From Candidatus Portnoybacteria bacterium RBG_19FT_COMBO_36_7 (GTDB lineage: Bacteria; Patescibacteriota; Minisyncoccia; Portnoybacterales; GWB1-42-6): a stretch of 64,000 nt of DNA. Within the stretch, counting starts at the first letter, position 1, and every line of letters starts with the position of its first letter. The translations under genes and the position numbers were made by a program. The stretch covers positions 5,398 to 69,397 of the forward strand of contig MHMW01000028.1 of NCBI GenBank assembly GCA_001819495.1, written 5' to 3'. Of the stretch, positions 1,621-42,821 are shown piece by piece. The notes under the pieces are model-generated. The model did no database searches. It saw nothing but the letters and a program-made list of their open reading frames with translations, and was not told the DNA's origin.

Positions 1621-2214
1621 ATGGATGAGGCAGTATTAAAAAAACTGAAAGAGATACCCGGCGAGGTGAGGGGAGTGACCATGCAGACCGACGCCAATTA
1701 TGTCTTAAGAAAGATAGGAGAGGAAGGGCTGGCAAAGCTGCAGCAAAAAACCAAGCAATTGGGCTGGGAAATAGATTATAAGCATATCAAGACTATGGGC
1801 TGGTATCCTTTGGGGCAAAGGGTTGTTTCTCTGCTGGCCGCCAAAGAAACTTTTGGCTGGGGCGATAAAGAAATTCAGGATATGGGCAACTGCGCGCCCA
1901 AATATTCTTTTATTGCCAGCACCATGCTCAAATACTTTTTGTCAGTTTCTAAAGTTTTTCAGGAAGCGGCCAGATACTGGGACAAACACTACAGCGTGGG
2001 GAAACTGGTGCCCGTTAAAATTGACGAGAAAAATAAATTTGCGCTTCTGAGATTAAAAGATTTTAACGTGGATCCGGTTTTCTGTCCTTATTTTACCGGC
2101 TATTTTTTAAGGATAAGCCAGATGGTCATCAAAAGCGAAAAAATTACTGCCGAGGAAACAGAATGTCCTTCTAAAGGGGGCCAATGGCACGAATTTTTAA
2201 TGAAATGGGTATAA
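1621..2214 (+). CDS. V4R-domain-like ligand-binding protein, paralog B of the tandem pair.
   Basis: Collinear weak similarity to 996-1601 (MGWYP, KYF..V.K..Q, ECPSKGGQWHEFLMKW). Confidence 0.4.
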   Translation: MDEAVLKKLKEIPGEVRGVTMQTDANYVLRKIGEEGLAKLQQKTKQLGWEIDYKHIKTMGWYPLGQRVVSLLAAKETFGWGDKEIQDMGNCAPKYSFIASTMLKYFLSVSKVFQEAARYWDKHYSVGKLVPVKIDEKNKFALLRLKDFNVDPVFCPYFTGYFLRISQMVIKSEKITAEETECPSKGGQWHEFLMKWV

Positions 2215-2810
2215 TGGAAAAATCAGGAGTTAAAAAAAACAAAGACCGCGATGTATATTCGGACATAAGTGAGGAGCTGGAAGAACTTGAACGATATATC
2301 GGCGAACTCTCCACTTTTATGCCGACGCCTTTTTGCATTGTCAATCCGTCTGACATGATTTTGAATATTAACAAGGCATTTTGCGATTTGACCGGATATG
2401 ATGAGCTGGAAATTGTTGGGGAGCAGATTTACAAGATATTTGAGAGCAATGAAGAAGCAGAGATTCTGAGAGAAAAAGTTTTGAAAGACGGACTGGTTCG
2501 GGGGCAAGAAATGATATTGGTTACCCGAAGCGGGAAAAAGATAAATATCAGCGTTTCGGCTTCTTTGAGAAGAGACCAAGACGATGAAATAATCGGTTAT
2601 TTTTTCGCCTTTTCGGATATAAGCGAGCTCAAAAAAATGCAACGGCAGCTGGAGCAAAAAGTTGAAGAAAGAACCAGGGAATTGAGCGAAAAGATCAGTG
2701 AGCTTGAAAGATTCAATCAGCTGGCAATCGGCCGAGAATTAAAAATGGTAGAGCTGAAAAGCGAAATAGAAAATCTTAGGGACCAGCTTGAAAAGATTAA
2801 AGGAAAATGA
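2184..2810 (+). CDS. Stand-alone PAS-domain sensor protein with a C-terminal coiled coil (ERTRELSEK linker) ending in a GRELKMVELK motif; no output domain.
   Basis: PAS-like core (NPSDMILNINKAFCDLTGYDELEIVGEQI ... DDEIIGYFFAFSDISE). The linker motif EERTREL is typical of PAS-histidine kinases. AAGGGGG lies 3 nt before the ATG. Confidence 0.6.
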   Translation: MARIFNEMGIMEKSGVKKNKDRDVYSDISEELEELERYIGELSTFMPTPFCIVNPSDMILNINKAFCDLTGYDELEIVGEQIYKIFESNEEAEILREKVLKDGLVRGQEMILVTRSGKKINISVSASLRRDQDDEIIGYFFAFSDISELKKMQRQLEQKVEERTRELSEKISELERFNQLAIGRELKMVELKSEIENLRDQLEKIKGK

Positions 2811-3515: not shown

Positions 3516-3915
3516 AAGTTTAAAAATATTTATCCTAGGCCTAAGTGGCCTTTTTGGCTTGTTTCCCTTATAAAAAAGGAATAAACCAAACAAAAAACCC
3601 CGTTTGTTTGGGGAATATGAGATTATAGCATGCCAGGAGGCAAAAGTCAAGATTTTGTGGTAGAAGCTACTCTAGACTAGCTCCTTTCGGTTTTGCACAT
3701 AATACGCTGTTAAATTGGCTGAAAAGAAAAAAATAAAATATTTTAGTGAAGAGCTTAAAGCTACATTATCAAAACTTGGTGTTGAGGTTATTCTTTTTGA
3801 GAATAGACTTGTTTCTTTGCCAAAAAGGAAAATAATAAAGTGGTATTTTTTTGCCTTTTTAAATCGGCTCGTTTTTTTGTTTGGGGAGAGACTGATGTTA
3901 TAATAATCAAAAATT

Positions 3916-4106
3916 ATGGACTTTGCTTTTTTAATACATTCAAGGACTATACTGATGTTCAGAGAAAATTTAAAGTTGCAAAATATCTCCCTAAATCCTG
4001 GGTAGAATTTTGGTGTCTGCATTGGCCGCCAGTGGTGGTGTCTAAAATTGACGGGCTGAAAGATAAAAAGGAGGAGATAAAAAAATCTATTGATTACTGT
4101 GTATAA
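3916..4106 (+). pseudogene. Degenerate, frameshifted copy of the 'mini-gene' repeat (MDFAFLIHS... start plus DYTDVQRKFKVAKYLPKSWVEFWCLHWPP body plus Lys/Glu-rich tail).
   Basis: About 120 bp is nearly identical to 8440-8560. The ATG frame stops after 24 codons because of a 1-nt indel relative to the 8440 copy. Confidence 0.4.
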
Positions 4107-5433: not shown

Positions 5434-5505
5434 TTTTTGTTTAGGGCGGGGTGGATGATTGAACAACTTCACGCCTGGCAGGCGAAAGTGATATAATAGA
5501 AGCAA
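5434..5505 (+). promoter_or_regulatory. Copy 1 of a ~70-bp direct repeat carrying an extended -10 promoter (TGATATAAT), upstream of the small gene pair at 5572-6035.
   Basis: TTTTTGTTTAGGGCGGGGTGGATGATTGAACAACTTCACGCCTGGCAGGCGAAAGTGATATAATAGAAGCAA; copy 2 at 6077-6150. Confidence 0.5.
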
Positions 5506-5571: not shown

Positions 5572-5748
5572 ATGAAAAAAATTATATCAAAAGATAAAAC
5601 TCAAGCCGGCCTTATAAAGCGAATAGAAAATTTACTGTCTGAGCAGACAGGTATAATTTTATCTGCAGTCGACCAAAAAGTCGCGAAGCTAGAAAAAAGA
5701 ATTGATGATTTTGACTTTTTAATATATTCAGCTAAAATCAAATCATGA
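5572..5748 (+). CDS. Small coiled-coil protein (58 aa), paralogous to the next ORF and translationally coupled to it through an ATGA overlap.
   Basis: Hand-translated: MKKIISKDKTQAGLIKRIENLLSEQTGIILSAVDQKVAKLEKRIDDFDFLIYSAKIKS. It was too short for the ORF track. Confidence 0.4.
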   Translation: MKKIISKDKTQAGLIKRIENLLSEQTGIILSAVDQKVAKLEKRIDDFDFLIYSAKIKS

Positions 5749-6035
5749 AAAAAGAGCAAACCATTACCAAGGATTATCTTGAAAAAACCCTTGATAAACG
5801 ACTGTCGCAACAGGCGCAGGTTATTATTGCGGCGGTTGACAGTGTGCTCCAAAAAAGGCTGGAAAAAGTAAAAACGGAATTGAAAAACGATATTAATAAC
5901 GTCCAAACCCTGATTGACGGCTACGTCAAAGCACAGGAAGATTTTAAGCAGGAATTTGTTATTCTGAAAGAGGAAGTGAAACAGATAAAACAGGTGCTAA
6001 AGAAAAAACTGGGAGTAGAAATCCAAGCTTTCTAG
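5745..6035 (+). CDS. Small coiled-coil protein (96 aa), paralog of 5572-5748.
   Basis: LS.Q.QVIIAAVDSVLQKRLEK mirrors LSEQTGIILSAVDQKVAKLEK. A terminator hairpin GCCATCCCTTGATGGC plus T-run follows. Confidence 0.5.
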   Translation: MKKEQTITKDYLEKTLDKRLSQQAQVIIAAVDSVLQKRLEKVKTELKNDINNVQTLIDGYVKAQEDFKQEFVILKEEVKQIKQVLKKKLGVEIQAF

Positions 6036-6076
6036 TTTCGTCAAATAAAACTAACCACAAGCCATCCCTTGATGGC

Positions 6077-6150
6077 TTTTTTTGTTTGGGGCGGGGTGGA
6101 TGATTGGGCAACTTCACGCCTGACGGGGGAAAGTGATATAATAGAAGCAA
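6077..6150 (+). promoter_or_regulatory. Copy 2 of the 70-bp promoter-bearing direct repeat.
   Basis: TTTTTGTTTGGGGCGGGGTGGATGATTGGGCAACTTCACGCCTGACGGGGGAAAGTGATATAATAGAAGCAA. Confidence 0.5.
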
Positions 6151-6188
6151 GTCTTCGCCAATGAAGATAGTTTAAGATTTGTAAAATG

Positions 6189-6259
6189 CCAAGCAGTGAA
6201 AATTCGACTGCCTGGCGGCAAATAATTTTTAACCTGTCGAATTTCTACTACTTGGTATG
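6189..6259 (+). promoter_or_regulatory. Inverted-repeat leader element (CCAAGCAGTGAAAATTCGAC ... GTCGAATTTCTACTACTTGG) ending at an ATG (MDFAFL... ORFlet). It is a paralog of the element in the dnaA 5' leader.
   Basis: About 20-bp imperfect inverted arms. The same arms (CCAGGTAGTGAAAATTCGAC / GTCGAATTTCTATTACCTGG) sit at 54148-54277, immediately before the dnaA ATG. Confidence 0.45.
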
Positions 6260-6342
6260 GACTTTGCGTTTTTAATACATTTACGCCTAAATTAAAAATC
6301 CCTCATTGATAGGGATTTTTTGATACAGTGAGCAATAATAAG

Positions 6343-6888
6343 TTAAGATTTTTTCTTTCTGTATTCTTCTTTAAATTTCAAAAATTTATTTTTAAGATCG
6401 TTAAATTTTTTTATACCGATATTCCAAGAGTCTAATCCTTTATCAAAAATAACAAATTGATGATAAGCAATCTGTATAGCACCTTCCTCGGGATTAACAA
6501 TATACCACTTGCTATCAATAAAACATTCGGCAAAAATATGCCCTTCAATGTATTTTTCGTCTCCTATATCTAACCATTTTCGCCTTATTGCCTCAACATA
6601 TACGGTAGGGATTTTTCTTACCCTGGCAAAAGCAATAAAAACCAAGGCATAATCAGTGCAGCCGGTGGTGACTTTGCTTTTTATTATTTCATCCGCTGTT
6701 CTCTTTCTAAAAAATTTTTTCTTAAATTCAACTGAATCTGTATCTTTGATATTTTTCTGCACCCATTGTAGCATCTCAAAAATAAGTTCAAGCCCCTCGT
6801 TTTTAAAAGTCGAGGCTATCTCAATAATTTTAGGTGTAATTTCGGTCTGCTGACCACTTTTTAAATATTTTTTAATTTGTTTATTCAT
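6343..6888 (-). CDS. Transglutaminase-like cysteine peptidase domain protein.
   Basis: GCTDYALVF (Cys), GHIFAEC (His) and a downstream Asp give the Cys-His-Asp transglutaminase-like core. Confidence 0.6.
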   Translation of the reverse strand: MNKQIKKYLKSGQQTEITPKIIEIASTFKNEGLELIFEMLQWVQKNIKDTDSVEFKKKFFRKRTADEIIKSKVTTGCTDYALVFIAFARVRKIPTVYVEAIRRKWLDIGDEKYIEGHIFAECFIDSKWYIVNPEEGAIQIAYHQFVIFDKGLDSWNIGIKKFNDLKNKFLKFKEEYRKKKS

Positions 6889-6949
6889 GCGATTAATATA
6901 GCAAATTGGTATAAAAAAGAAAAGGGACCGGAATTTTCCGATCCCTCAA

Positions 6950-8050
6950 TCACACAGTCGACAACGAATGGTCTAATTCCATAATCGCAGACTTCATGTG
7001 TCTAAGTATCTTCTTTGTAGCTGAACAAAAATAGTTGAGAGATGATAATAATTGGCCATTGATATACCGATAATAGGTACAACCTCCATTGCAGATATTA
7101 GCCCATTCACAACTTAAACATTCCTTCTTCGATGCTTGAATCTCGCCCTTAAGACTCTTCCACTTTTTTGAACACAACAAGCTTTTCAGAGTTTTCTCCA
7201 TTATATTGCCGATTCTGAACTTATCAATGCCTACAAATCTGCCGCATAAATATAGGTCACCGTTGTAATCAAGCGCAAGATAAGCAGCGCACTCATTGGC
7301 GCAATGACAAATAGTCGGTCGCCCTCCGATCAGCCCTTGAAAATAACTTTCTAACGGCTGAATTTTAATATCTGGGTCGTCCTTTGCCATCCAGCAGTCG
7401 AAAATTCTGATCATGAAACTCGCATATCCAAGGGGGGTGATAGAAAAACTGGCCATCTTTCCATTCTCTTTCTCGGCACACACCGATAAATTGAGCCTGC
7501 CGAGACCGGAACTAACAAAAAAATCCCATATAGCATCTACGTTTTTTGCCGCATTTTTTGTGATAACAGAAATGATACCCGGATTAAAACCATTAACCTT
7601 CAGTACCTCGATTCCTTTCATTACTCTTTCAAATGACCCACTACCATTGAATATTTTTCGAAATTGATCATGAATCTTTTTGGGTCCATCTAAGCTTACT
7701 CCGATTTTAAATGCATTCTTTTTGAAAAATGCTGCCCATTCTTGATCAATTAAAGTACCGTTTGTCTGGACACTATTTAGATATTGTTTGCCTTTCAGGT
7801 ATCTGGCTTGGAAACCAACTGCTGCTTCGTAAAAATTTATTCCGGCAATCAACGGTTCGCCCCCGTGCCAGACGAAAGAAAAACTGTTTTCGTCAAGCTC
7901 TGATAACTGACAAATAAAAGTCTCGAGAAGACGTATATCCATCTTCAGCTTTTTTTCTTCTTTCGTTTTCGACCACAGATTGCTATTGTAACAATAATCA
8001 CATCTTAAATTACACAAAACAGAAACTGGTTTCATGATAAAGGTCAGCAT
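6950..8050 (-). CDS. Radical SAM/SPASM enzyme of the anSME (anaerobic sulfatase-maturating enzyme) family. I think it more likely a peptide-modifying maturase here.
   Basis: KPVSVLCNLRCDYC (CX3CX2C), FVWHGGEPLIAG, SVQTNGTLIDQEW...GVSLDGPKKIHDQFRK, and SPASM cysteines CHCANEC...CGRF...CLSCEWANICNGGC. Collinear, by recollection, with Clostridium anSME, which carries these same four motif blocks. AGGAGGA lies upstream of the ATG. Confidence 0.8.
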   Translation of the reverse strand: MLTFIMKPVSVLCNLRCDYCYNSNLWSKTKEEKKLKMDIRLLETFICQLSELDENSFSFVWHGGEPLIAGINFYEAAVGFQARYLKGKQYLNSVQTNGTLIDQEWAAFFKKNAFKIGVSLDGPKKIHDQFRKIFNGSGSFERVMKGIEVLKVNGFNPGIISVITKNAAKNVDAIWDFFVSSGLGRLNLSVCAEKENGKMASFSITPLGYASFMIRIFDCWMAKDDPDIKIQPLESYFQGLIGGRPTICHCANECAAYLALDYNGDLYLCGRFVGIDKFRIGNIMEKTLKSLLCSKKWKSLKGEIQASKKECLSCEWANICNGGCTYYRYINGQLLSSLNYFCSATKKILRHMKSAIMELDHSLSTV

Positions 8051-8113
8051 ATATCCTCCTTTTATGCCTGAAAAAATAGGGGAGGCAAAAATTTTTGTCT
8101 CCCCACCGCCCGA

Positions 8114-8266
8114 CTAATCGGATCTGTCACCATATTGAGAATCACCATACCCATCTCCGTAGGGACTAGCGCTATGGCACTTGTAAGTCCGATCAGGCGA
8201 CTGCTTCCGCATTGCCATCATTCGTGCCAAAATACGGACACCTTTTTTCTTTTTAGGCGCTTTCAC
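8114..8266 (-). CDS. Candidate RiPP precursor peptide (50 aa; GTG start). Sequence: VKAPKKKKGVRILARMMAMRKQSPDRTYKCHSASPYGDGYGDSQYGDRSD.
   Basis: Hand-translated minus-strand ORF. AAGGAGG lies 8 nt upstream of the GTG. A consensus promoter sits directly upstream and the radical SAM gene 63 nt downstream on the same strand. It has a Lys-rich leader-like N-terminus and a YGD-repeat C-terminus with a single Cys. Confidence 0.5.
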   Translation of the reverse strand: MKAPKKKKGVRILARMMAMRKQSPDRTYKCHSASPYGDGYGDSQYGDRSD

Positions 8267-8293
8267 GGCCAACACCTCCTTTCTATTTGGAAT

Positions 8294-8338: not shown

Positions 8339-8439
8339 GTTTTGCTAAGGGTACCTAAAGTGCTATAATGTAACTAAATCTTCGTAAGCTAAGATTTAAA
8401 TAATCCTAATTGGAAAGAATAATTTAAGGTTTATTTAAA

Positions 8440-8717
8440 ATGGACTTTGCTTTTTTAATTCATTCAAGGGATTATACTGATGTTCAGCGAAAATTTAAAG
8501 TTGCAAAATATCTCCCTAAATCCTGGGTGGAATTTTGGTGTCTGCATTGGCCGCCAGCCGCGAACTGAAAATGGTCGAACTTAAAAAGAAGATAAAAGAG
8601 ATGGAGGGAAAACGGGAAAAGATTAGTTCATATGAAACTAGACCAAATAATAAATTTAATATTAGATTATATATCCATGAAATGGTTAATGTTATATATA
8701 TTTTGATGTATGAATAA
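8440..8717 (+). pseudogene. 'Mini-gene' repeat copy. It reads MDFAFLIHSRDYTDVQRKFKVAKYLPKSWVEFWCLHWPPAAN*, then, in the +1 frame, ...SRELKMVELKKKIKEMEGKREK... (ORF track 8535-8717). It looks like an internally deleted relic of a sensor gene.
   Basis: Its 5' end is identical to the sequence preceding gene 20447. Its 3' tail is homologous at DNA and protein level to the C-terminus of 20447-21598 and of 2184-2810. Confidence 0.45.
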
Positions 8718-15052: not shown

Positions 15053-16177
15053 ATGTTACCTGATTATATAAAAAAGAACATAATTCATGATGACAAAGTA
15101 TTCGCTTCTTTTAAAAACAGAGGGTCTTTTAATATACCATCATATAATCCAAAAGAACATTACAAGCATTTAACGAATAGCAAATATTATTATGCTCTTA
15201 TCGCGTTTAGACATCATTTGAAATCAGTTTCAGATTATTATTTCGGCATAAAGCAAAGGGCAAAGAATATTGACCTTTTTATGCTAACTCCGAGTATATC
15301 TTCTCCGATGGGCCCTGGATCTAGCTCAGAACCAATCAAAATACAATTAGGCAAGATAAAAACTTGTCTTGTAGATTCGTCACAATTCGGCCTCGAACCA
15401 CTCCTCTTAAATAAATCTAATAAAGTATATTGCTATCTACCTTCCATGCGGGGGGAGGACTGTGACCATCGACATCTTAATCAATTCTATCACTGCGAGT
15501 TTGAAATGATTGGTAAATTCGATGAATTGGTGCCTATTATTGAAGACTACATAAAACACCTGTCTGCCGCTATTTTGCTGATGCGAAATATTGTAGATAA
15601 AATCAGCGGCGACCCAACAAAAACAAAGGCAATGATGATAAAAATAATAAAAACAGATAGATTTCCTGAAATTTCGTTTGATGAAGCGACGAACATCCTC
15701 ATAAAAAATAAAGGGGAAAATTATGTAAATATCACGCGTCACGGAAAAGATATCAGCTGTCAAGGAGAAATAGAAATCATGAAAGCTTTAAAAGTTGATA
15801 CGCCTTTATGGATTAGATATTTTGACCGAGACAGGGTTCCTTTTTATCAAAAACCAGATCCTAAAAGCCCCAACAAAACCATAAATGCCGACCTGCTTTT
15901 CCCTCCAATTGTAAAAAATTCTTTTGGCGGTGAAATTGTCGGCTCGGGGCAAAGACAGGATTCTCCTAGAGAAATACATGAATCGTTAAAGAGACAAAAT
16001 AATATCTCCCCAAAACCTTACGAGTGGTATATCAATTTACGGAAATTGCCAGGATATAAAACAACATCGGGATTTGGGCTGGGAATAGAAAGATTTATTG
16101 CTTGGGCCCTAGCCAAGCAAAACATCAGAGATGTTATTTTGTATCCCCGAATTAAAAATGTTGAAACTTATCCTTAA
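15053..16177 (+). CDS. Class IIb aminoacyl-tRNA-synthetase catalytic-core paralog lacking an anticodon-binding domain (AsnA/AS-AR-like or EpmA/PoxA-like amino-acid ligase).
   Basis: Motif 2-like MRGEDCDHRHLNQFYHCEFEM (compare FRxE....RHLxEF..E.E) and motif 3-like GFGLGIERFIAWALAKQNIRDVILYPR. Confidence 0.55.
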   Translation: MLPDYIKKNIIHDDKVFASFKNRGSFNIPSYNPKEHYKHLTNSKYYYALIAFRHHLKSVSDYYFGIKQRAKNIDLFMLTPSISSPMGPGSSSEPIKIQLGKIKTCLVDSSQFGLEPLLLNKSNKVYCYLPSMRGEDCDHRHLNQFYHCEFEMIGKFDELVPIIEDYIKHLSAAILLMRNIVDKISGDPTKTKAMMIKIIKTDRFPEISFDEATNILIKNKGENYVNITRHGKDISCQGEIEIMKALKVDTPLWIRYFDRDRVPFYQKPDPKSPNKTINADLLFPPIVKNSFGGEIVGSGQRQDSPREIHESLKRQNNISPKPYEWYINLRKLPGYKTTSGFGLGIERFIAWALAKQNIRDVILYPRIKNVETYP

Positions 16178-16193
16178 TCATCAACTAAAACAT

Positions 16194-17261
16194 ATGCCTC
16201 AATCAGAAAATAAAAAATGGCATTGGCAATTAAAAAACAGCATCAAAACGGGTGAACAATTGGCAAAATACATAAACCTAACAGATAAAGAGAAACGAGA
16301 CATAAAGAAAGTTACTGAAACTTATAAAATGTCCATCACCCCCTATTACGCTTCACTTATGGATAAAAACGATTCTAATTGCCCCTTACGAAGAATGGTT
16401 ATACCTAATATCGCCGAACTAGATAGTCCACCCGCAATACCCGACCCTAACAAAGAAAAGTCTTTTGAAAAGGCCACGGGCTTAAGACAAGAGTTTAAAG
16501 AAAAATGTACTATCCTGCTGACTTTAATGTGCCCCAATTATTGCAGGCACTGTTTTAGAAAATATTGGGTTGGAAGAGTGAATAGTGTTTTAACCAACCG
16601 ACAGATAGATGAAGTGGTGAAGAAGATTAACAGCAATAAAAACATAGAAGAGGTATGTATTTCTGGGGGAGATCCGCTTATTTTGTCTAATGATCGTATT
16701 GACTACGTTTTAACCAAGCTCAAAAAAATTAAGCATGTTGATGTTGTAAGATTATATACTAGAACTTTAGTATTTCTGCCACAAAGAATAACTGATAATT
16801 TAATAAAAGTCCTTAAGAAGTACCCAACACTCTATATCTGCACCCATTTTAATCATCCAAAAGAACTGACTAAAGAATCAATAGCCGCCTGCAGAAAAAT
16901 AGCAGATAATGGAATACCTATTTTTAATCAGTCAGTTTTATTAAAGGGGGTCAATGATAACTCCAAAACGATGAAAGATTTGCTTTGGGGCTTAGTAAAA
17001 AATAAAGTAAAACCTCTTTACCTTCAACATTGCATAAAAACTATGGGTAATGACTATTTAGTTACTAAAATAGATGTAGGACAAAAAATTATCAAAGATC
17101 TTTATTGCCATATGTCTGTATTGGGAATCCCTCTATATGATGTTATTTTATATTCAGGCAAGGTTTTAATGATGCCCGACTACGTAAAGAAAGATAAAAA
17201 TGGAAGGCGATTTTTTACTAATTTACTCGAGGAAAAATTTTACATTGATAAATTAGAATAA
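16194..17261 (+). CDS. KamA-family radical SAM aminomutase (lysine 2,3-aminomutase / EpmB-like). The ORF-track start at 16131 overlaps the upstream gene; ATGs at 16158 or 16194 are the plausible starts.
   Basis: CPNYCRHCFRK (KamA-type CX3CX2C with CRHCFR), WHWQL...ITPYYASLMD N-terminal KamA signature. Confidence 0.75.
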   Translation: MPQSENKKWHWQLKNSIKTGEQLAKYINLTDKEKRDIKKVTETYKMSITPYYASLMDKNDSNCPLRRMVIPNIAELDSPPAIPDPNKEKSFEKATGLRQEFKEKCTILLTLMCPNYCRHCFRKYWVGRVNSVLTNRQIDEVVKKINSNKNIEEVCISGGDPLILSNDRIDYVLTKLKKIKHVDVVRLYTRTLVFLPQRITDNLIKVLKKYPTLYICTHFNHPKELTKESIAACRKIADNGIPIFNQSVLLKGVNDNSKTMKDLLWGLVKNKVKPLYLQHCIKTMGNDYLVTKIDVGQKIIKDLYCHMSVLGIPLYDVILYSGKVLMMPDYVKKDKNGRRFFTNLLEEKFYIDKLE

Positions 17262-17269
17262 TAAATTCT

Positions 17270-18454
17270 ATGGAGAATTTTGAACATGTAAAAAAAGAAG
17301 GTAATTTGCCCGAGGAATTTGAACAAGGGGAAATTTTTAAGTATCAAGAATTTATTAAACAAACCTATATTGAAAGTTTTTCAGAAAAAAATTTTAGCGT
17401 CCATGAAAGCATAGATCTGGTAGCTGGCAAAACAGATTCCAGTATTTTATTTATCGGTTCAACAATAAGTGCATTAAAACCTTTATATATGAATAATGAA
17501 ATTCCGCCAAACGGGGTTGTAATCAATCAACCTTGTATTAGAACTCATAATTTAAAAAATATATATTCCGAACAGTCTAATAAAGGTAATACTTTTTTTA
17601 ATCTTATGGGCGGCATGTCAGAAGCAGATAGATTTTCAGATATCTACAAATTGTCTTTACAGTATTTTATTGAATCCTTAAATATTAATCGCGATCGTCT
17701 TTTTATTAGGGCTACTTCCGAAGATAAAGATATTTTGGAAAATTTAAAATCCGAAAAAGATCACCCAGAGTTAGAGTTGGATGGGAGACAACCGGATTAT
17801 TATAGATGGAGATATGGTATCAAGGGTGTCTCTGGCAGAGGAATTGCCCTTGCAATTCGTAATGCTGTTAATCAAAAAGAATCTATGACATTGGGTAATA
17901 TTATTATTATGGAAAGCGATGATCACCCCAAAACTGTTCAGTGGGGATACGGAGTTGAATCAATAATTAGCGGCATTTACAACAAAGATAGAGCTATTGA
18001 AGGATCTTTAATCAGCCAAGTGGTGCCATATGAAATTGGTCTAAAATCAAAATTCGCAGATGCATTGGCAGCAGTAATAGAAATGTACAATTCGGGATTG
18101 AAGCCAAACAACCGAGGAGCCGCCAGCTATTTGAAGGCTTATCTTAGAGGAATGTCCTATCTGATAAATAAATTAAATATTGAAAAAAATACACTAAAGG
18201 AGTACGTTTCGGAGTATTGTAAATTAAGAAACATCAATGATGCAGGCTTTATTTACGATGAAATAGTTAATGGCATAAACGACCACGATGATAGTGTTAA
18301 TAAAATGGTTCAAGCTTTGAAGGAAAAATATCTGTCTGAAACGAAAAAAATAACTAATTCAAAAAAGGCAGTTAATAAACTCAGCAATAAATATAGGATA
18401 CATCCTGAGGAAGTAGTAATTATTATAGATAATTTATTTGCAAAAAAAGATTAA
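17270..18454 (+). CDS. Stand-alone alanyl-tRNA-synthetase catalytic-domain-like protein, with no editing or C-terminal domains.
   Basis: QPCIRTHNL...NTFFNLMGGMSEADRFSDIYK aligns to the AlaRS motif QKCIRT.D...HHTFFEMLGN.SFGDYFK. Confidence 0.45.
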   Translation: MENFEHVKKEGNLPEEFEQGEIFKYQEFIKQTYIESFSEKNFSVHESIDLVAGKTDSSILFIGSTISALKPLYMNNEIPPNGVVINQPCIRTHNLKNIYSEQSNKGNTFFNLMGGMSEADRFSDIYKLSLQYFIESLNINRDRLFIRATSEDKDILENLKSEKDHPELELDGRQPDYYRWRYGIKGVSGRGIALAIRNAVNQKESMTLGNIIIMESDDHPKTVQWGYGVESIISGIYNKDRAIEGSLISQVVPYEIGLKSKFADALAAVIEMYNSGLKPNNRGAASYLKAYLRGMSYLINKLNIEKNTLKEYVSEYCKLRNINDAGFIYDEIVNGINDHDDSVNKMVQALKEKYLSETKKITNSKKAVNKLSNKYRIHPEEVVIIIDNLFAKKD

Positions 18455-18467
18455 TAATTTTTATGAT

Positions 18468-19232
18468 ATGAAAATAATAGTAGCAATCAGCGGGGGAGAA
18501 ATAGGTAGGCCTGGCTATCCTGTCGAGACAACAGAAATTGACAAAGAAATAATAAAATTAAGCGGGAAAAAGAGAGCTAATTTGCTTTTTATTCCCACAG
18601 CCAGTTCTGATGCAGAAGGATATGTAGAAACTGTAAAAAAACATTTTGGCGAAAGATTGGGTTGTAGGGTTGATGTACTGTATTTAATTAATTCAGGTAT
18701 AGTCAAAAAAGAAATTGGAAAAAAGATTTTTTCCTCAGATATTATTTATGTTGGTGGAGGGAATACATTAAAAATGCTCAAAGTCTGGAAAAAAAATGGT
18801 GTAGATAAAATTTTGAAAAGGGCCTGGAAACGAAAAATTGTTATATCTGGATTGAGCGCAGGGGCAGTTTGTTGGTTTAAATATTTTAACTCAGATTCAA
18901 AAAAGTTTATAAAAGGAAAGAATAATTATCAATTAATAAAATTAAAGGGATTAGGTTGGCTAAACGCATCTTTTTGTCCCCACTATGATACGGAAGAAAA
19001 AAGAAAACGCCATTTAAAAAAAATGATGTTAAAAACACCGGGAATCGCTTTGGCTGTTGATAATTGCTGTGCGGTAATAATAGAAAATGATAAATATCAA
19101 GTGATATCATCAAAAAGGACTGCGAATGCTTATAAAGTATTCTGGTTGAACAAAAAATTCTATCAAATAAAAATAAAAAAAGTGAAATTGTTTAAGCCAC
19201 TAGGTGAATTGCTTAAAAAAACAAATATTTAA
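18468..19232 (+). CDS. Peptidase S51 (PepE dipeptidase E / cyanophycinase family). The ORF-track start at 18438 is a TTG; I prefer the ATG at MKIIVAISGG.
   Basis: IPTASSD...IIYVGGGNTLKMLKVW...ISGLSAGAV, the S51 Ser nucleophile context. Confidence 0.65.
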   Translation: MKIIVAISGGEIGRPGYPVETTEIDKEIIKLSGKKRANLLFIPTASSDAEGYVETVKKHFGERLGCRVDVLYLINSGIVKKEIGKKIFSSDIIYVGGGNTLKMLKVWKKNGVDKILKRAWKRKIVISGLSAGAVCWFKYFNSDSKKFIKGKNNYQLIKLKGLGWLNASFCPHYDTEEKRKRHLKKMMLKTPGIALAVDNCCAVIIENDKYQVISSKRTANAYKVFWLNKKFYQIKIKKVKLFKPLGELLKKTNI

Positions 19233-20194: not shown

Positions 20195-20407
20195 TTTAGT
20201 TTATAATGAATCATTAAAAAATCCAAAAAATTAAAACTGGGTGATGAATAATTAAAGAAAAGAGCAAAAGCAGTTTTGACCTAACACTGAAATAGCCTCT
20301 AAAAGGGGCTTTTTCTTTTTAGTTAAAGTTTGGTATAATATAATCAAATTCCCATTTTAGGGCTATATTAATTATGCTAACGACCGAATTTTGGAGGGGA
20401 TATCCAA

Positions 20408-20446
20408 TATGGACTTTGCTTTTTTAATTCATTCAAGAGATTTAAA
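20408..20446 (+). repeat. Copy of the conserved 'mini-gene' 5' end (ATGGACTTTGCTTTTTTAATTCATTCAAGAGA = MDFAFLIHSRD...) directly upstream of the sensor gene; the GGAGGGGA RBS precedes this ATG.
   Basis: The same 30 nt occur at 3916, 8440 and (partially) 6257. Here the frame stops after 15 codons and the annotated gene starts 1 frame off at 20447. Confidence 0.5.
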
Positions 20447-21598
20447 ATGCCCCTAATCAATATCAAATCTCTCATCTTGCTGATCGTCGCGCTGCTCAAT
20501 CTGTCGCTGGGCATTTTGGTGTTCTTCAAAAACAAAAAGGATAAAATAAACATCTATTACGCTTTCACTGCCTGGAGCACTGCTGGCTGGGCATTCGGTT
20601 TGGCTATGTTCTATATGATAAGCGATCTGAATATTGCCCTGCTCTGGTATGAATTAGTCGCTTATGTCTCTGCCGCTTTAATTGGCGCCAGCTTCCTTTC
20701 CTTCTCTTTTGTTTTCCCTTTTGTTAAAGAAAAGCCAAAAACAATCTTTAAAATTATATTTTTCATATTCACTGCTTTTATTCTGGTTATCACCGTCTGG
20801 CCAAAATTAATGATACCCAGAATTGTTGAAAACTCTTGGGGCAGAGGAGGAGAACTAACGGTTTATTACAATTTCTATGTTGTCTATTTCACCATGTGCA
20901 TGATCGGCGCATTCGGCAATTTCATCCAGAAATACAAAAGTGCTGACGAGTCGCAAAAAATCCAAATAAAATATGTCTTTGCCGGAACTCTGACTGCCGC
21001 AATCTGGGGCACATTATGTAATCTTTTCTTGCCCTGGTTCAAAATATATGCGCTAATGTGGGCTGGTCCATATCTTACAGTTGCTATGGTTGGACTAATC
21101 GCTTATGCTGTTCTTAAGCACCATCTGATGAACATCAAAGTCATCGCCACTGACTTTGCCGTTGGGGTAATGGGAGCAATATTATTGATATTGCCTTTTT
21201 TTATGCCAAATAACCTGCTAAGATTCCTAACTGGAGCAATTTTTATTCTATTCTGTTTTTTTGGCTACTATTTGATAAAAACCACTTATGAGCAAGCCCG
21301 GCGCAAAGAAGAAGCCCAAAAAATCGCTATTCAGGAAAGGTTTTCGAAAGAAGAGGCGATCTGGAGCGCCCGGCAACTCCAAAGATTCAATGAAACATTA
21401 GAACAAAGCGTTAAACTGAGGACAAAAGAACTAGAACAAGCAAAAAATATTGCAGAGCAAAAGGCCAAAGAAGCAGAAAGCAAAAGAGAAGAGCTCGAAA
21501 AATTCTATGAAGTCACTGTAGGCCGGGAACTAAAAATGGCGGAGTTAAAGAAAAAGATTAAAGAAATGGAGGAAAAATCAGAGGAAGAAAATAAATAA
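20447..21598 (+). CDS. HisKA_7TM-type membrane sensor protein without a kinase domain. It has an N-terminal 7-TM domain, a coiled coil, and a C-terminal GRELKMAELKKKIKEMEE tail.
   Basis: The TM domain is paralogous to 22252-23862 (FAGTLTAAIWGTLCNLFLPWF...GLIAYAVLKHHLMNIKVIATDFA vs LIGTLATATIGIFFNLLLPIF...GFIAYAVIRHHLFDIKVIATEIF). The C-terminal LRTKELEQAK linker is followed by the RELKM motif. Confidence 0.6.
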   Translation: MPLINIKSLILLIVALLNLSLGILVFFKNKKDKINIYYAFTAWSTAGWAFGLAMFYMISDLNIALLWYELVAYVSAALIGASFLSFSFVFPFVKEKPKTIFKIIFFIFTAFILVITVWPKLMIPRIVENSWGRGGELTVYYNFYVVYFTMCMIGAFGNFIQKYKSADESQKIQIKYVFAGTLTAAIWGTLCNLFLPWFKIYALMWAGPYLTVAMVGLIAYAVLKHHLMNIKVIATDFAVGVMGAILLILPFFMPNNLLRFLTGAIFILFCFFGYYLIKTTYEQARRKEEAQKIAIQERFSKEEAIWSARQLQRFNETLEQSVKLRTKELEQAKNIAEQKAKEAESKREELEKFYEVTVGRELKMAELKKKIKEMEEKSEEENK

Positions 21599-21607
21599 TA
21601 TATTTAA

Positions 21608-22234
21608 ATGAAAGACAAACATAAAATCTCTTTTTTCTTTTTCTTAAAAGCTTGTTTTAAATTTAGAGCTAGACAAATATCTAGTCCCGAAGAATTGTCA
21701 GCAGCATACAAATTAAGAAAGGTAATTTATTCTGACCTCCTGAAATGGGTATCATGTAACGAAGAACAAGAAACGGATGAATACGATAAATATGCAACTC
21801 ATTTCGGGGTATTTAATAAACATGACGTTGTGGCTTATTGCAGATTAATAATAGCAGTTAATCCCACAATGTTAGAAAATAATTTTAAAATGATTTTAGG
21901 GAAAGAGAAAATACGGAAAGAAAAAGATACTGCTGAAATTTCCCGCCTAACTCTAGACAGAAAGTTTATAGGTAATCGACGCGGAAAAATAATTCAAGCT
22001 CTTCTTTATAGAAAAATTTTTCACTGGTCAAGGCAAAATGGAATTAAATTTTGGTATATAGTAGTCAGAGAAGGATTTTTCAACAATCTAAAAGCTAATT
22101 TTGACTGCCAACAAATAGGAAAAACCTATTATTTCAAAGAAAATGACTCCGCTATTGCGGCAATAATTGATTTACAAAAATCTCTAGAATTTGTTCGACG
22201 AACCAATAAATTTCTATATTGGTGGTATAAATAG
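21608..22234 (+). CDS. LuxI-family autoinducer-synthase-fold protein (acyl-homoserine-lactone synthase-like / N-acyl amino acid synthase-like GNAT).
   Basis: Aligns to the conserved LuxI/LasI blocks LR..VF......W...E.D.YD, CRL...T.P.ML.N.F and E.SRF: LRKVIYSDLLKWVSCNEEQETDEYD, VVAYCRLIIAVNPTMLENNF, TAEISRLTLD. Confidence 0.55.
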   Translation: MKDKHKISFFFFLKACFKFRARQISSPEELSAAYKLRKVIYSDLLKWVSCNEEQETDEYDKYATHFGVFNKHDVVAYCRLIIAVNPTMLENNFKMILGKEKIRKEKDTAEISRLTLDRKFIGNRRGKIIQALLYRKIFHWSRQNGIKFWYIVVREGFFNNLKANFDCQQIGKTYYFKENDSAIAAIIDLQKSLEFVRRTNKFLYWWYK

Positions 22235-22251
22235 CACTTTTAAGCTTAACT

Positions 22252-23862
22252 ATGTCAAGTATATTAACGCCCAATATAGTTTCTTTATTGATAACCACTG
22301 CCTTTAATGTGCTCTTGGCATTTTTTATTTTGTCAAAAAACAGAAAAAGTCCAGTTAACCGAATATTCAGTTTCTTGGCTTTAGGTGTAGCTCTTTGGTC
22401 TTTCACAAATATAGCTACTCAGATCGTAAAAACTGTCCATCAAGGCATTCTTTGGTCACAAATAAGTTATTTAAGTACCCTTATAATTGCGGTCTCTTTC
22501 TTTTTGTTCTCTATTATTTTTCCGGAAGAAGAAAAAATGAGCAAAAGCAGATTTTTTATTCCTGTAATTATTGCCGCGATAGTCACTTCCGTATTATTAT
22601 TCATCCCTAAATTTGTTATTGAAACCGTGACACTTTCTCCTTGGAAAATCATGACTAATCGAGGCGCCTATCTTTATACGGCATCGTTTGTAGGAATGCT
22701 GCTTTTTTCTTTCGGAAATATTTTAAGAAAATATCGCCAACTCAAAGGAGAACAAAAAGCCCAAATAAAATTCGTATTGATTGGCACACTCGCGACAGCA
22801 ACAATTGGGATATTTTTTAATTTATTACTACCGATATTTTTTAATTACTATGGCCTTGTCTGGTTTGGTCCAAACGCCGGCCTAGTCATGGTCGGCTTTA
22901 TAGCTTACGCGGTAATAAGGCATCACCTGTTTGATATTAAAGTAATCGCGACTGAAATTTTCAGTATTTTAATTTCGCTTTCTGCCTTAATTGATGCCCT
23001 ACTTTCGCAGACACCAACAGAATTTACATTAAAATTTCTACTTTTTTCGGCAATTTCTTTGTTCAGTATTCTATTGATTCGGGGAGTCTTAAAAGAAGTG
23101 AAAACTAGAGAACAACTTGCGGCACTAACAGAAAAATTACAAAAAGCAAATGATGATCTGCAAAAATTGGATAAGGCCAAAAGCGAGTTTATATCCATTG
23201 CTTCCCATCAGCTCCGCACTCCTTTATCCGTGATAAAAGGTTTTGTTTCCATGCTGATTGAGGGCTCCTATGGCAAGATTCCCGATAAAGGCAAAGAAAT
23301 TCTGTCCAAAATAGGGGCCAGCTCCGACCGCTTAAACAGACTTATTGACGACCTGCTTGACTTATCGCGCATGGAGGGCGGCCAGATGAAATACGAATGG
23401 AATTTTATCAATCTGGCCGAATTGGCTGGCAGCGTGGTTGATGAGCTCCAGCCCCAGGCCGACAAAAAAGGCATTAATTTCAAATGGCTCAATCAGGCGC
23501 CAGAAAAAATGTTCGTCAGAGCCGACAAGGAAAAATTAAGGCAGGTTGTCATGAACCTGATTGACAATGCCATCAAATACACATCCAAGGGATTTGTTGA
23601 AGTAAAACTGGTCAAGACGCCCGAAAATCAGGCAAGATTATCGGTTAAGGATTCGGGAGTGGGCATGGACCAGGAAGAAATGAATCTGATTTTCGGCAAA
23701 TTCGTGCGCGGCAAAAAAACGCCTCGGCTCTGGACCGAGGGAGTGGGTTTGGGGCTCTATGTGGCGCGCAAAATTTTAGAAGAGCACAAAGGCAGCGTCT
23801 GGGCAGAGAGCGAAGGAGAAGACAAAGGCAGCACGTTCTTTATGGAAATACCGGTTTACTAA
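22252..23862 (+). CDS. Sensor histidine kinase (HisKA_7TM N-terminal membrane domain plus HisKA plus HATPase_c).
   Basis: H-box ISIASHQLRTPLSVIKGF, N-box VMNLIDNAIKYT, G-boxes DSGVGM and GVGLGLYVARKI. The N-terminal 7-TM domain is paralogous to 20447. Confidence 0.85.
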   Translation: MSSILTPNIVSLLITTAFNVLLAFFILSKNRKSPVNRIFSFLALGVALWSFTNIATQIVKTVHQGILWSQISYLSTLIIAVSFFLFSIIFPEEEKMSKSRFFIPVIIAAIVTSVLLFIPKFVIETVTLSPWKIMTNRGAYLYTASFVGMLLFSFGNILRKYRQLKGEQKAQIKFVLIGTLATATIGIFFNLLLPIFFNYYGLVWFGPNAGLVMVGFIAYAVIRHHLFDIKVIATEIFSILISLSALIDALLSQTPTEFTLKFLLFSAISLFSILLIRGVLKEVKTREQLAALTEKLQKANDDLQKLDKAKSEFISIASHQLRTPLSVIKGFVSMLIEGSYGKIPDKGKEILSKIGASSDRLNRLIDDLLDLSRMEGGQMKYEWNFINLAELAGSVVDELQPQADKKGINFKWLNQAPEKMFVRADKEKLRQVVMNLIDNAIKYTSKGFVEVKLVKTPENQARLSVKDSGVGMDQEEMNLIFGKFVRGKKTPRLWTEGVGLGLYVARKILEEHKGSVWAESEGEDKGSTFFMEIPVY

Positions 23863-25627: not shown

Positions 25628-25686
25628 AATTTTGAATTTTGAAATTCGAATTTCAAATCAAATTCTAATTCGTTAATTTTGAAACA

Positions 25687-26403: not shown

Positions 26404-27726
26404 TTAGGGGGTAAGCCTATTAACACCCCTATATAGATACGTAACTTCACGTACGTTCTTAAAGCCGAGCAAAACCATTAACATACGCGTAAGCCCGAAT
26501 CCATATCCTCCGTGAGGCGGACATCCATACTTGAAGAAGTCTAAATAGTATTGAATCGATTCAGGCCTGAGGCCTTTCTCTTTAATCTGCTTCAGCAGGA
26601 TATCGTATCTGTGTTCTCGTTGAGCTCCAGTGGTAACTTCAAGCCCCTTCCATATTAAATCAAAGCTTTTTGTGATCGTTGGCTCGTCTTCGTATCTCAT
26701 ATGATAGAACGGCCTGACAGAGATAGGATAATCGGTGACGAATACAAATTCATGTTTATAGTGTTCTTTAATGTACTTGGCAAGCAGTCTCTCTCCTTCT
26801 GGATCCAAGTCACCTTTACTGCCCCTGTCTATCGTATGACCTATCTTTTCCAATATTTTATAAGCCTCTGCCATCTTTATTCTTGGAAAAGGTAAATCTG
26901 GCACGATCACTTCTTCTTTGAACATTTCTTTGATCCGTTCTCCGTGCTCCTCCTTTATACCTTTCAATATTTCATGGAGCCATTGCTCTTCAAGGTGCAT
27001 GACGTCTTCGTGAGATTTAATCCAGGATATCTCCACATCAACACTCGTAAACTCTGTATCGTGCCTTGAAGTAAAAGAAGGGTTAGCTCGAAAAACGGGC
27101 CCGATCTCAAAAACTCTGTCAAACCCTGCTGCCATAGCCATCTGTTTGTAAAACTGAGGTGACTGGGCAAGGTATGCATATTTGCCGAAATATTCGACTC
27201 TGAATAATTCGGCACCGGATTCACTCGCACTTCCCATGAATTTAGGCGAATGGATTTCAATAAATCCGTTCTTGATCCAGAAATTACGCATCTCTTGTTC
27301 AATCGTGGTTTGGACCTGAAATACGAGCAAGTTCGATGGCTGCCGCAAATCTAAGAATCTCCAATCCAGACGATTTTCTAGGGAAGTCTCTTTCGGATCG
27401 ATTGGCAGCGGCGACATGGCTAAATTCAATATTTTGATCTCATCAATCACAATCTCTATCTGTTGGAGTTTCACCTGATCATTTTTAACCACGACCCCAG
27501 AAATTTCAATTGCAGACTCCGACGTAAGACTGTCGATTAATTTCTCGATAGGATCATCGCCACCTTTACGTTCATGAATTGCCTGGACAAGACCCGTTTT
27601 ATCCCGGACAATGATAAATTGCATCTTTTTTTGTTTGCGGATAGCATGAACCCATCCATCAATAGTGGTTTTTTCGTTAATCTTCTCTTTCAGTTTTCCG
27701 ATTAAAGTCCTCTTCATACCTTTCAC
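26404..27726 (-). CDS. aspS: Class IIb aminoacyl-tRNA synthetase, archaeal/eukaryal-type short form, most likely aspartyl-tRNA synthetase.
   Basis: N-terminal OB anticodon-binding fold, motif 2 FRANPSFTSRHDTEFTSVDVE, motif 3 GGYGFGLTRMLMVLLGFKNVREV, and AGGAGGTGA RBS. Confidence 0.6.
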   Translation of the reverse strand: MKGMKRTLIGKLKEKINEKTTIDGWVHAIRKQKKMQFIIVRDKTGLVQAIHERKGGDDPIEKLIDSLTSESAIEISGVVVKNDQVKLQQIEIVIDEIKILNLAMSPLPIDPKETSLENRLDWRFLDLRQPSNLLVFQVQTTIEQEMRNFWIKNGFIEIHSPKFMGSASESGAELFRVEYFGKYAYLAQSPQFYKQMAMAAGFDRVFEIGPVFRANPSFTSRHDTEFTSVDVEISWIKSHEDVMHLEEQWLHEILKGIKEEHGERIKEMFKEEVIVPDLPFPRIKMAEAYKILEKIGHTIDRGSKGDLDPEGERLLAKYIKEHYKHEFVFVTDYPISVRPFYHMRYEDEPTITKSFDLIWKGLEVTTGAQREHRYDILLKQIKEKGLRPESIQYYLDFFKYGCPPHGGYGFGLTRMLMVLLGFKNVREVTYLYRGVNRLTP

Positions 27727-27766
27727 CTCCTATTCAATATAAACAGAAAGTCTAGAAAATGCAAGT

Positions 27767-29095: not shown

Positions 29096-29256
29096 GACGT
29101 GCCTCCTTTTATTCATTTTTTAAGAAACTATCAGAATTTTAATCCTCTATAATACTAATTTCATAAAGAATTGTCAATATTTTGTTATGGTTCATTTACC
29201 TATTTAAAATACCTATAGTATAATATAATAAACAGATTAAATCTTAATTAAAACCT

Positions 29257-42113: not shown

Positions 42114-42796
42114 ACGGATCCTCAAAACAAAAATCAAGCGTCCTGAAAAAAATTCCCATTGCCGATATCAAAGACAATGTGGTTATAATGAAAGACACCT
42201 CGCTAAGAGGCGTTTTAATGACAAATTCGCTCAATTTTTCTTTAAAATCAACCGAGGAACAGGACGCTATCACATACCGATATCAGGATTTCTTAAATTC
42301 GCTTGATTTTCCGCTCCAGATACTGATTGTCACCAGAAAATTTGACGTTTCCGATTATCTGGTCATGCTGGAAAAAAAGCGCAACGAGCAGGATAATGAA
42401 CTTTTAAAAATCCAGGTTTCCGAATACATTGATTTTATCAAAGGACTGACCCAGTTGGTCAATATCATGAGCACCTATTTTTATCTTGTTGTGCCTTTCT
42501 CTCCAAGCGAAGAGGCAAAAAAGAAAGCAGAGGGAAAGGGGATATCGGGCAATATCACCGGCCTTTTCTCGGGATTTGGCAAAAAAGACGCCCAGCAGAA
42601 AATCCAGAGCTATGACGAACTGCGAACCGGCCTCTGGCAGAGAATGGAGTATATTTCTTCAGGCCTTTCGGCCATCGGCCTAAAAACCGTCACCTTAAAC
42701 AACGAGGAATTGCTTGAGCTTTATTATCGGATGTATAACCCTGATGCCAAAGAAAAGCCGAAAATAGAGACGGAACAACCAATTCCCAATTCCTAA
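42110..42796 (+). CDS. Type IV secretion-associated hypothetical protein. It loosely resembles the N-terminal region of Gram-positive VirB4/PrgJ-type proteins.
   Basis: IPIADIKDNVVIMKDTSLRGVLMTNSLNFSLKSTEEQDAITYRYQDFLNSLDFPLQILI pattern. Weak; context only. Confidence 0.3.
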   Translation: MNGSSKQKSSVLKKIPIADIKDNVVIMKDTSLRGVLMTNSLNFSLKSTEEQDAITYRYQDFLNSLDFPLQILIVTRKFDVSDYLVMLEKKRNEQDNELLKIQVSEYIDFIKGLTQLVNIMSTYFYLVVPFSPSEEAKKKAEGKGISGNITGLFSGFGKKDAQQKIQSYDELRTGLWQRMEYISSGLSAIGLKTVTLNNEELLELYYRMYNPDAKEKPKIETEQPIPNS

Positions 42797-42821
42797 TTTC
42801 CAATTTCCAATAAAAATCCCA

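Follow-up and report, generated by a model that had tools for sequence, protein, structure and literature searches.

Co-oriented 5′ stubs of a lost oxidoreductase gene as probable cassette joints in a flexible island of Portnoybacteria

Introduction

The islands of Prochlorococcus known as tycheposons contain scattered partial tRNA genes, which are copies of the integration target (bioRxiv 10.1101/2020.12.28.424599). The present study concerns a locus of related appearance in a 64,000-nucleotide stretch of the genome of Candidatus Portnoybacteria bacterium RBG_19FT_COMBO_36_7 (assembly GCA_001819495.1, contig MHMW01000028.1, positions 5,398 to 69,397 of the forward strand; the whole stretch is called here the window, and coordinates are counted from its first letter). 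Four copies of a short module, whose reading frame typically begins MDFAFLIH, lie in this window. By homology, the module is the start of a gene for an acyl-ACP (acyl carrier protein)-reductase-like NAD(P) oxidoreductase, separate from the seven-transmembrane (7-TM) sensor gene located nearby; we refer to this parent gene as X. We consider it probable, with some reserve, that the repeats are promoter-bearing 5′ stubs of a lost X at a flexible-island hotspot, where they serve as recombination joints between cassettes.

Like tycheposon-type islands, the locus shows co-oriented fragments of a target gene between blocks of cargo, hypervariability, and gain or loss among strains at the fragments. 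In contrast to those islands, it is the start of a protein-coding gene that forms the target, a promoter is part of the fragment and the target gene is gone; neither an integrase nor a fixed core was found, and fragment lengths vary tenfold. The putative mobile promoters (PMPs) of Matus-Garcia, Nijveen and van Passel (2012) are defined as upstream regions of non-paralogous genes that share at least 80% identity across 50 nt or more (PMC3575422). Two blocks in the window, at 5434-5505 and 6079-6150, share 92% identity across 72 nt, and the sequences that follow them differ. Here too, highly similar upstream regions stand before unrelated genes with no association with insertion sequences; the repeat differs from PMPs in that it runs into coding sequence (excluded by design in PMC3575422), is found at one locus only and delimits cassettes.

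Integrons, too, come to mind: both systems line up unrelated cassettes, often without a promoter, at one site, with a conserved element at each border and a platform promoter. However, no intI-type integrase or tyrosine-recombinase domain was found, the border elements are gene stubs that differ in length, and cassettes are found in either orientation. As to attC-like palindromes, the borders consist of stubs and ordinary terminator hairpins, and Rfam scans of the window, which included no attC-specific model, returned nothing of this kind. In the orphan module arrays of rhs and cdiA, 3′ fragments of a still-functional gene are kept beside swapped-in modules. Our locus shares with these the retention of displaced fragments of one gene next to swapped modules, and homologous recombination within the retained fragment; it differs in that the fragments are 5′ only and come from a lost gene, and in that the cargo is not paralogous. 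The architecture departs from the known systems in four respects: the border is the promoter-bearing 5′ end of a protein-coding gene, no recombinase was found, the border is variable in length and the target is lost.

In Patescibacteria (also called the candidate phyla radiation, CPR), whose tiny genomes contain few recognisable mobile elements, the gain and exchange of accessory genes are therefore poorly understood. A literature search on Portnoybacteria genomic islands found nothing. The locus provides a concrete, testable example in which the promoter-bearing 5′ end of a destroyed gene would be reused as the border of swappable cassettes.

Results and Discussion

Identity of the repeated 5′ module

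A HMMER search with the longest of the short proteins (88 aa) as query recovered full-length proteins of 337-358 aa with 59-71% identity, and the stubs at large align from residue 1 with proteins of 337-360 aa at 59-90% identity. The full-length proteins carry a Shikimate_DH-type NAD-binding domain. Matches of full-length relatives to acyl-ACP reductase structures (6jzq, E 1e-18), to TIGR04058 and to the N-terminal reductase region of PigE relate the parent X to the acyl-ACP reductase (AAR) family and to the PigE reductase domain. What sets the locus apart from the AAR family is that X scores far under the equivalog cut-offs (89 vs 450 bits) and that the window carries N-terminal codons only. 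Just the first 8-57 codons of X are present there, hence no enzyme is encoded. Homologues of X number more than 300 in Patescibacteria, and an intact X is present in one Portnoybacteria genome (locus L027).

Since the full-length MDFAFL(I/V)H... proteins are oxidoreductases, the module is the start of X rather than an end of the sensor gene. The original prediction, made from the letters of the window alone, had taken the module for an end of the 7-TM sensor gene, an assignment that has to be given up. It had also called for a search in relatives for full-length homologues of the MDFAFL... sequence; these do exist, but they are oxidoreductases of 339-360 aa rather than sensors. A word-indexed protein search had returned only short proteins (47-88 aa) from other Portnoybacteria, which have their first 20-58 residues in common and unrelated tails. 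The suggestion that no full-length gene exists was overturned by the exhaustive HMMER search and by a pattern scan of genome contigs. The origin in X accounts for the small "hypothetical proteins" of Portnoybacteria metagenome-assembled genomes (47-88 aa, all starting MDFAFLIH) and corrects the view of these proteins as relatives of the sensor gene.

No residue of X past position 88 was detected in the window or in any array locus at E<=1. Full-length X was likewise absent from the window and all array loci, the arrays on short contigs being incomplete. The stubs display N-terminal homology, the ancestral position (see below) and a truncated or disrupted frame with the remainder of the gene missing, all expected of a pseudogene, but not a neutral substitution pattern, as their differences are overwhelmingly synonymous.

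Stub copies in the window

The stub string ATGGACTTTGCTTTTTTAATWCATTCAAG (29 nt, beginning ATGGACTTTGC) occurs without mismatch at 3916, 8440 and 20409, and with 3 mismatches at 6257. All four copies are on the plus strand, and 100 shuffles of the window gave no match. The original prediction had placed the last copy one position too early, at 20408; its other three positions, including the partial match, stand. The copies retain different lengths of X: copy 1 (3916) keeps about 171 nt, copy 2 (6257) about 25-28 nt, copy 3 (8440) 117 nt and copy 4 (20409) about 36-38 nt.

Copy 1 (3916-4106) has a 1-nt deletion after nt 30 and otherwise aligns with full-length X homologues to about nt 171 (position 4086), where about 20 unrelated nt and a stop codon follow. 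The open reading frame (ORF) at 3840-4106 corresponds to P0001, annotated in this genome as an 88-aa hypothetical protein. In copy 2 (6257-6321), a 12-codon ORF, MDFAFLIHLRLN*, is followed by a hairpin and a T-run at 6294-6321. Copy 3 (8440-8556) comprises 39 intact codons. Copy 4 (20409-20456) forms a 15-codon upstream ORF, MDFAFLIHSRDLKCP*, which is out of frame with the sensor gene and overlaps its ATG (20447) by 10 nt at the stop; the original prediction was right that this copy is out of frame with the sensor gene. Copy 4 lies upstream of the kinase-proximal block (the sensor, a LuxI-like gene and a HisKA_7TM kinase), that is, on the kinase side of the ancestral X site. An assembly artefact was rejected as the source of the repeats because the copies are non-identical and equivalent multi-copy arrays occur in many independent assemblies.

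Promoter and leader blocks

The repeat unit is larger than the coding stub and includes a terminator/promoter block and pieces of a shared 5′ untranslated region (UTR). A promoter-like site is found just upstream of most stubs; promoter scanning and reading of the sequence identified extended -10 elements for all four window copies. Upstream of copy 1 (3872-3915, plus strand), a T-run/GTTTGGGG motif accompanies an extended -10 element, TGTTATAAT, at 3896-3904. This element ends 11 nt before the ATG, which implies a near-leaderless layout; the spacing from -10 element to ATG is 10-11 nt in copy 1 and L002, and 7 nt at the intact-X locus L014.

The terminator/promoter block (TTTTTGTTTGGGG...TTCACG-18-TATAAT with TG) exists in two window copies, the pair compared above with PMPs, and partially at 3872-3897. 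Copy A (5434-5505, plus strand) has no stub after it and precedes two small ORFs. Copy B (6079-6150) is part of the region upstream of copy 2 (6059-6256, plus strand), where it follows a terminator hairpin (6059-6078) and is succeeded by a 106-nt leader in common with L063. The block recurs upstream of stubs in L002, L003 and L068, and the intact X of L027 has a related terminator/T-run arrangement upstream.

L001 and L003 have a complete 5′ UTR, of which copies 3 and 4 preserve parts. The region upstream of copy 3 (8342-8439, plus strand) contains a promoter-like site (TTGCTA-16-TATAAT with TG) and a leader remnant, ...AATAATTTAAGGTTTATTTAAA, homologous to the stub 5′ UTR of L001 and L003. 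The region upstream of copy 4 (20294-20408, plus strand) contains a terminator (20294-20310), an extended -10 element (TGGTATAAT, 20331-20339) and a leader with GGAGG 8 nt before the ATG at 20409, homologous to the 5′ UTR in L003. At 20447 and 8710 in the window, as well as in L090 and L003, the next gene starts within or directly after a stub ORF.

The possibility of a structured RNA or riboswitch in the leader was discarded: the fold z-score was just -1.25 and there was no Rfam match. In the Rfam scans the sole match in the window was a tRNA, and the leaders gave none at E<=1 save one at chance level. A GC-rich block of about 60 nt stands directly before the stub ATG in L001 (745-808) and L003 (4184-4241, 10767-10824 and 11971-12028). 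Flanked by TTCGCATG direct repeats and absent from the window copies, this block may represent a very small insertion; the fold predicted for it lacks significance (z -1.25).

Ancestral X site and accessory island

At L011, L014-L018 and L027, the gene order is acyltransferase, (in L027) a 95-aa ORF, X, and a HisKA_7TM kinase gene of about 535 codons. Intact X is co-oriented with the kinase gene and abuts or overlaps it, which is consistent with co-transcription. Both flanks of this site can be recognised in the window. The two small ORFs at 5572-6035 (58 and 96 aa, plus strand), immediately to the left of copy 2, show 58% identity in tblastn to the L027 95-aa ORF directly 5′ of intact X and represent the ancestral left flank; their homologues are found upstream of stubs in L047, L074 and L083. 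The HisKA_7TM histidine kinase at 22252-23862 (plus strand), to the right of copy 4, is orthologous (52% aa identity) to the kinase directly after intact X and forms the right flank. The next gene in L027, ComM-like, has its counterpart at 29257 (82% aa identity).

Between copies 2 and 4 lie 14 kb of cargo, and the GC content is 0.32-0.35 over 8-26 kb, against 0.40-0.49 beyond. The window cargo includes a precursor/radical-SAM/transglutaminase-like cassette, a GDSL lipase, transketolase, HIT, NIF3, NUDIX, aminoacyl-tRNA synthetase (aaRS)-like, radical-SAM, S51 peptidase and methyltransferase genes. The cassette mentioned first occupies the interval between copies 2 and 3 (6343-8275, minus strand) and consists of transglutaminase-like and radical SAM/SPASM genes and a 53-aa precursor-like ORF.

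Stub arrays in other Portnoybacteria

Genome and metagenome collections were scanned for the stub pattern and the contexts of the matches looked up, which gave 78 copies in 37 distinct junction contexts. Contigs with multiple copies carry up to four stubs each, always co-oriented. The right-hand breakpoints within X fall at nt 25, 29, 38, 66, 81-83, 92, 97, 117, 136, 141, 144-148, 171, 222 and 267. The original prediction had raised the question whether the breakpoints coincide and held that random, non-coincident ones, together with the lack of a full-length MDFAFL... sensor gene in relatives, would speak for simple decay. On that rule the right-hand ends, scattered from 25 to 267 nt, favour decay, while a full-length homologue does exist. 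Junctions at nt 81-83 are present in L039, L047, L070, L003 (12029) and L083 (6093 and 11450), in four junction contexts; they continue with GGG(C/A)TTTTTTGTT, the start of the terminator/promoter block, and then diverge into different cassettes.

The cargo of these arrays comprises AbiEii and HicAB pairs, sets of APH, methyltransferase, NUDIX and glycosyltransferase genes, pairs of aaRS-like and radical SAM/SPASM genes, and PqqD-radical SAM genes with MFS. Pfam scans revealed no integrase, resolvase or transposase domain in the main ORFs of the window or inside the annotated arrays. The sole gene of this type, for an rve-type integrase, lies about 3 kb ahead of the first stub on contig L003, at the contig's far end. 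The stub pattern had no match in 2.9 million viral contigs, and a phage or plasmid origin was rejected on this ground.

Comparison of related strains provides a view of events at the stubs. L083 and L003 share 99.86% identity across a stretch of 6.2 kb, which ends at about nt 68 of X, inside a stub. Beyond the crossover the two carry different cassettes, and then a like stub-plus-UTR module in both (97.7% identical, compared through contig L077). That near-identical strains diverge inside a stub indicates that homologous recombination at stub modules swaps cassettes. Window copy 2 and L068 have a common right-hand junction with a transglutaminase-like gene beyond it, and their leaders to the left differ. 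The precursor/radical-SAM/transglutaminase cassette is found between two stubs both in the window and in L063, in opposite orientations.

The GRELKM tail and the sensor locus

The sensor gene at 20447-21598 (plus strand) encodes a 7-TM protein without a kinase domain, a paralogue (28-31% aa identity) of the downstream kinase, with a GRELKM motif at its C-terminus; an exact look-up of the protein in public assemblies gave no match. The original prediction had proposed that the tail after 8440 is homologous to the end of this gene, and so it is: SRELKMVELKKKIKEMEGKREK and the sensor C-terminus agree at 17 of 22 aa, with 47 of 66 nt (71%) identical. At that level of divergence the tail is an old relic of a sensor paralogue that once followed the stub, and not a copy of the gene at 20447. 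The relic (SRELKMVELKKKIKEMEGKREK..., 8557-8717, plus strand) is out of frame with the copy 3 stub and ends in a stop that overlaps the start codon of the GDSL-lipase gene (8710). Fusion of the module to a 3′ tail with a frameshift, claimed for both 3916 and 8440, holds for the latter (117 nt of X, out of frame to SRELKMVELKKKIKEMEGKREK); copy 1 has no GRELKM tail. The PAS protein at 2184-2810 (plus strand) does end with the same motif, as had been noticed, and GRELKM is a C-terminal module common among the local signalling proteins.

Independent fusions of a stub to such a tail exist in the window (at nt 117 of X), in L002 (nt 60-66, in frame, 47 aa) and in L081 (nt 148), while in L003 a 116-aa 3′ relic of the same sensor type stands directly before a stub. 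Fusions in three lineages, together with the L003 relic, suggest that a stub-then-sensor arrangement like that of copy 4 was probably widespread and that the sensor body has been deleted repeatedly. Microhomology-mediated deletion was considered for the stub/tail junction at 8440 and rejected: GGCCGC is found on both sides of the junction, which does not fit a one-step microhomology join.

Between the kinase-less sensor and the HisKA_7TM kinase (window 20447-23862) sits a gene resembling LuxI/acyl-homoserine-lactone synthase (21608-22234; PF00765 3.5e-17, NF052393 1e-15). From its gene content, the interval looks like a quorum-sensing locus in a Patescibacteria genome.

Origin of the stubs

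The reading given at the outset can be put as a series of steps. X would have been lost, and its site would have become a hotspot for accessory DNA in this Portnoybacteria lineage. A module made of the X promoter, the 5′ UTR and the first 25-270 nt of X would then have been duplicated several times, in the same orientation, at cassette borders. As portable homology, the copies would allow ordinary homologous recombination, within the genome or with DNA from related strains, to add, remove or exchange cassettes, and illegitimate deletions would cut back the right-hand end of every stub to a different point. The retention of some stubs is probably due to the promoter and translation start with which they provide the downstream gene.

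Several observations weigh against this account. Over the first 39 codons, stubs from different lineages show synonymous divergence (dS) of 0.8 to more than 2 and non-synonymous divergence (dN) of 0.03-0.09, with a dN/dS of about 0.03-0.07; nucleotide identity between lineages is 80-88% for the stubs and 63-66% for the neighbouring kinase gene. Within genomes the bias persists: copies 1 and 3 differ by 4 synonymous and no non-synonymous changes (neutral P about 0.001), and L003 copies A and B by 7 and 2, respectively (neutral P about 2e-4). Several stubs are nonetheless frameshifted, interrupted by stops or cut to 8-12 codons. Such near-synonymous-only divergence is not explained by simple decay; it requires either recent and repeated derivation from, or overwriting by, functional alleles, or selection on the peptide. 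The pattern suggests a role for functional alleles that circulate in the population, either as the genes from which the stubs were cut or as templates that repeatedly overwrite them; continual overwriting, if it is the cause, would be direct evidence of frequent homologous exchange in uncultured populations. Furthermore, random insertions should leave 3′ fragments of X as well, and none was seen at E<=1; no array ends in an intact X. The three stub-plus-tail fusions start their tails within 8 codons of one another, and four junction contexts have breakpoints at nt 81-83, which hints at a process less random than plain decay. Finally, at 25-38 nt the shortest window stubs approach the minimum length at which RecA-mediated recombination is efficient. 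The synonymous-only divergence, the survival of 5′ ends alone and the clustering of tail starts and of nt 81-83 junctions thus stand unexplained.

The presence of 5′ ends only, all of them direct repeats, would be readily understood if the stubs were scars of attachment sites, left by integrative elements that insert at the 5′ end of X and supply a promoter and first codons of their own, with successive integrations stacking the displaced 5′ ends. The promoter-like site just upstream of most copies agrees with such an origin, synonymous-only divergence would be expected if the element-borne copies had to encode a working N-terminus, and islands with scattered partial target genes are on record for tRNA-targeting elements (bioRxiv 10.1101/2020.12.28.424599). 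We nevertheless judge it distinctly unlikely: neither the scanned ORFs of the window nor the annotated arrays encode an integrase, recombinase or transposase, breakpoints ranging over 25-267 nt leave no fixed core (the shared part shrinks to 25 nt), no intact X closes any array (those on short contigs being incomplete), viral contigs lack the stub, and strain crossovers occur at differing positions in the module. The recurrence of co-oriented multi-stub arrays with varied cargo in several Portnoybacteria populations, and the exchange of cassettes at the stubs, could instead point to a dedicated expression and capture platform, an integrase-free analogue of the integron, in which the promoter/leader/stub unit is selected for driving and mobilising cassettes. 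About half of the stubs read straight into the next gene, and the leaders of L003 copies A and B show 7 differences in 103 positions (read by eye), compared with a proportion of synonymous differences (pS) of 0.33 in the stub. However, a terminator and opposite-strand cargo follow many stubs (copies 1 and 2, L001, L063, L096), the same cassette occurs between stubs in both orientations, some stubs contain frameshifts and stops, and nothing shows selection for the platform itself rather than a by-product of recombination; as an explanation of the repeats it appears unlikely. The broader conjecture is likewise doubtful: that Portnoybacteria, in the absence of obvious mobile elements at this locus, use the promoter/leader/stub unit as an integrase-free cassette platform beside a sensor-kinase locus, with RecA-type recombination between the units and with DNA taken up from neighbours capturing, expressing, excising and exchanging cassettes of peptide-modification, toxin-antitoxin and glycosylation genes, and with continual recombination with functional alleles in the population keeping the units uniform.

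A function of the short ORF (MDFAFLIHSRD...) itself, as a leader peptide or micropeptide that regulates or couples downstream translation, would account for the strong synonymous bias, and finds some support in the GGAGG 8 nt before the 20409 ATG, in the overlap of the stub stop with the sensor start, and in the 12-codon ORF at 6257 with its hairpin and T-run. This seems very unlikely given that the ORFs range from 8 to 88 residues with unrelated tails, that one is frameshifted (copy 1) and another stopped (L003 copy B), that its residues are simply those at the conserved N-terminus of an enzyme of 340-360 aa, and that the leaders match no known RNA family. The original prediction had considered three origins centred on the sensor: the mini-genes would be decayed copies of it, ends of a mobile unit carrying it, or silent donors for its variation. 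The stub-plus-tail fusions in three lineages (window 8440, L002, L081), the sensor 3′ relic beside a stub in L003 and the probably widespread stub-then-sensor arrangement are in their favour. As a group they are extremely improbable, however, since the 5′ module is not sensor sequence, the tail has just 71% DNA identity to the expressed sensor, copies 1 and 2 lack a tail, the cargo between copies is unrelated to sensors, and there are neither inverted repeats nor a recombinase. Taken singly, decay was the right idea in spirit, applied to the wrong gene (the sensor in place of X). The notion of conserved cassette ends comes closest, in that the stubs do stand at cassette borders and act as recombination joints, although the cargo is varied, no recombinase was found and the breakpoints do not coincide. 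For silent donors, paralogy with the body of the expressed gene would be expected; the stubs have no sequence in common with that of the sensor and the intervening cargo is unrelated, so this part of the proposal fails.

Other features of the window

The cassette at 6343-8275 (minus strand) resembles those for ribosomally synthesised and post-translationally modified peptides (RiPPs); its 53-aa precursor-like ORF ends with YKCHSASPYGDGYGDSQYGDRSD. The RiPP-like trio is seen again at 7578-9470 of L063, with a near-identical precursor C-terminus and the opposite orientation relative to the flanking stubs. At 15053-19232, aminoacyl-tRNA synthetase paralogues (class II Asp/Lys/Asn type and AlaX-like) lie beside radical SAM enzymes and an S51 peptidase. 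L090 and L091 likewise have aaRS-like genes, and pairs of aaRS-like and radical SAM/SPASM genes are recurrent array cargo in other Portnoybacteria. Two tandem full-length genes for class II Asp/Asn/Lys-type tRNA synthetases (440 and 449 aa) occupy 26404-29116 on the minus strand, between the kinase locus and the ComM-like gene.

In the interval 9-603, where the lower-GC region has its left edge, an HNH endonuclease gene ends 5 nt before a tRNA-Leu(TAA) gene. The dnaA and dnaN genes are at 54279-56987 and the cumulative GC skew turns near 56 kb, which places the replication origin about 30-35 kb from the variable island. Runs of AATTTCC/AATTTCA-type heptamers are present in intergenic positions at 25628-25677, 34645-34727, 42781-42830 and 45100-45149. 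Among unannotated ORFs, a TraG/VirB4-like P-loop ATPase gene (43252-45096) is possibly part of a type IV secretion or DNA-uptake apparatus, and as such bears on how foreign DNA might get to the island.

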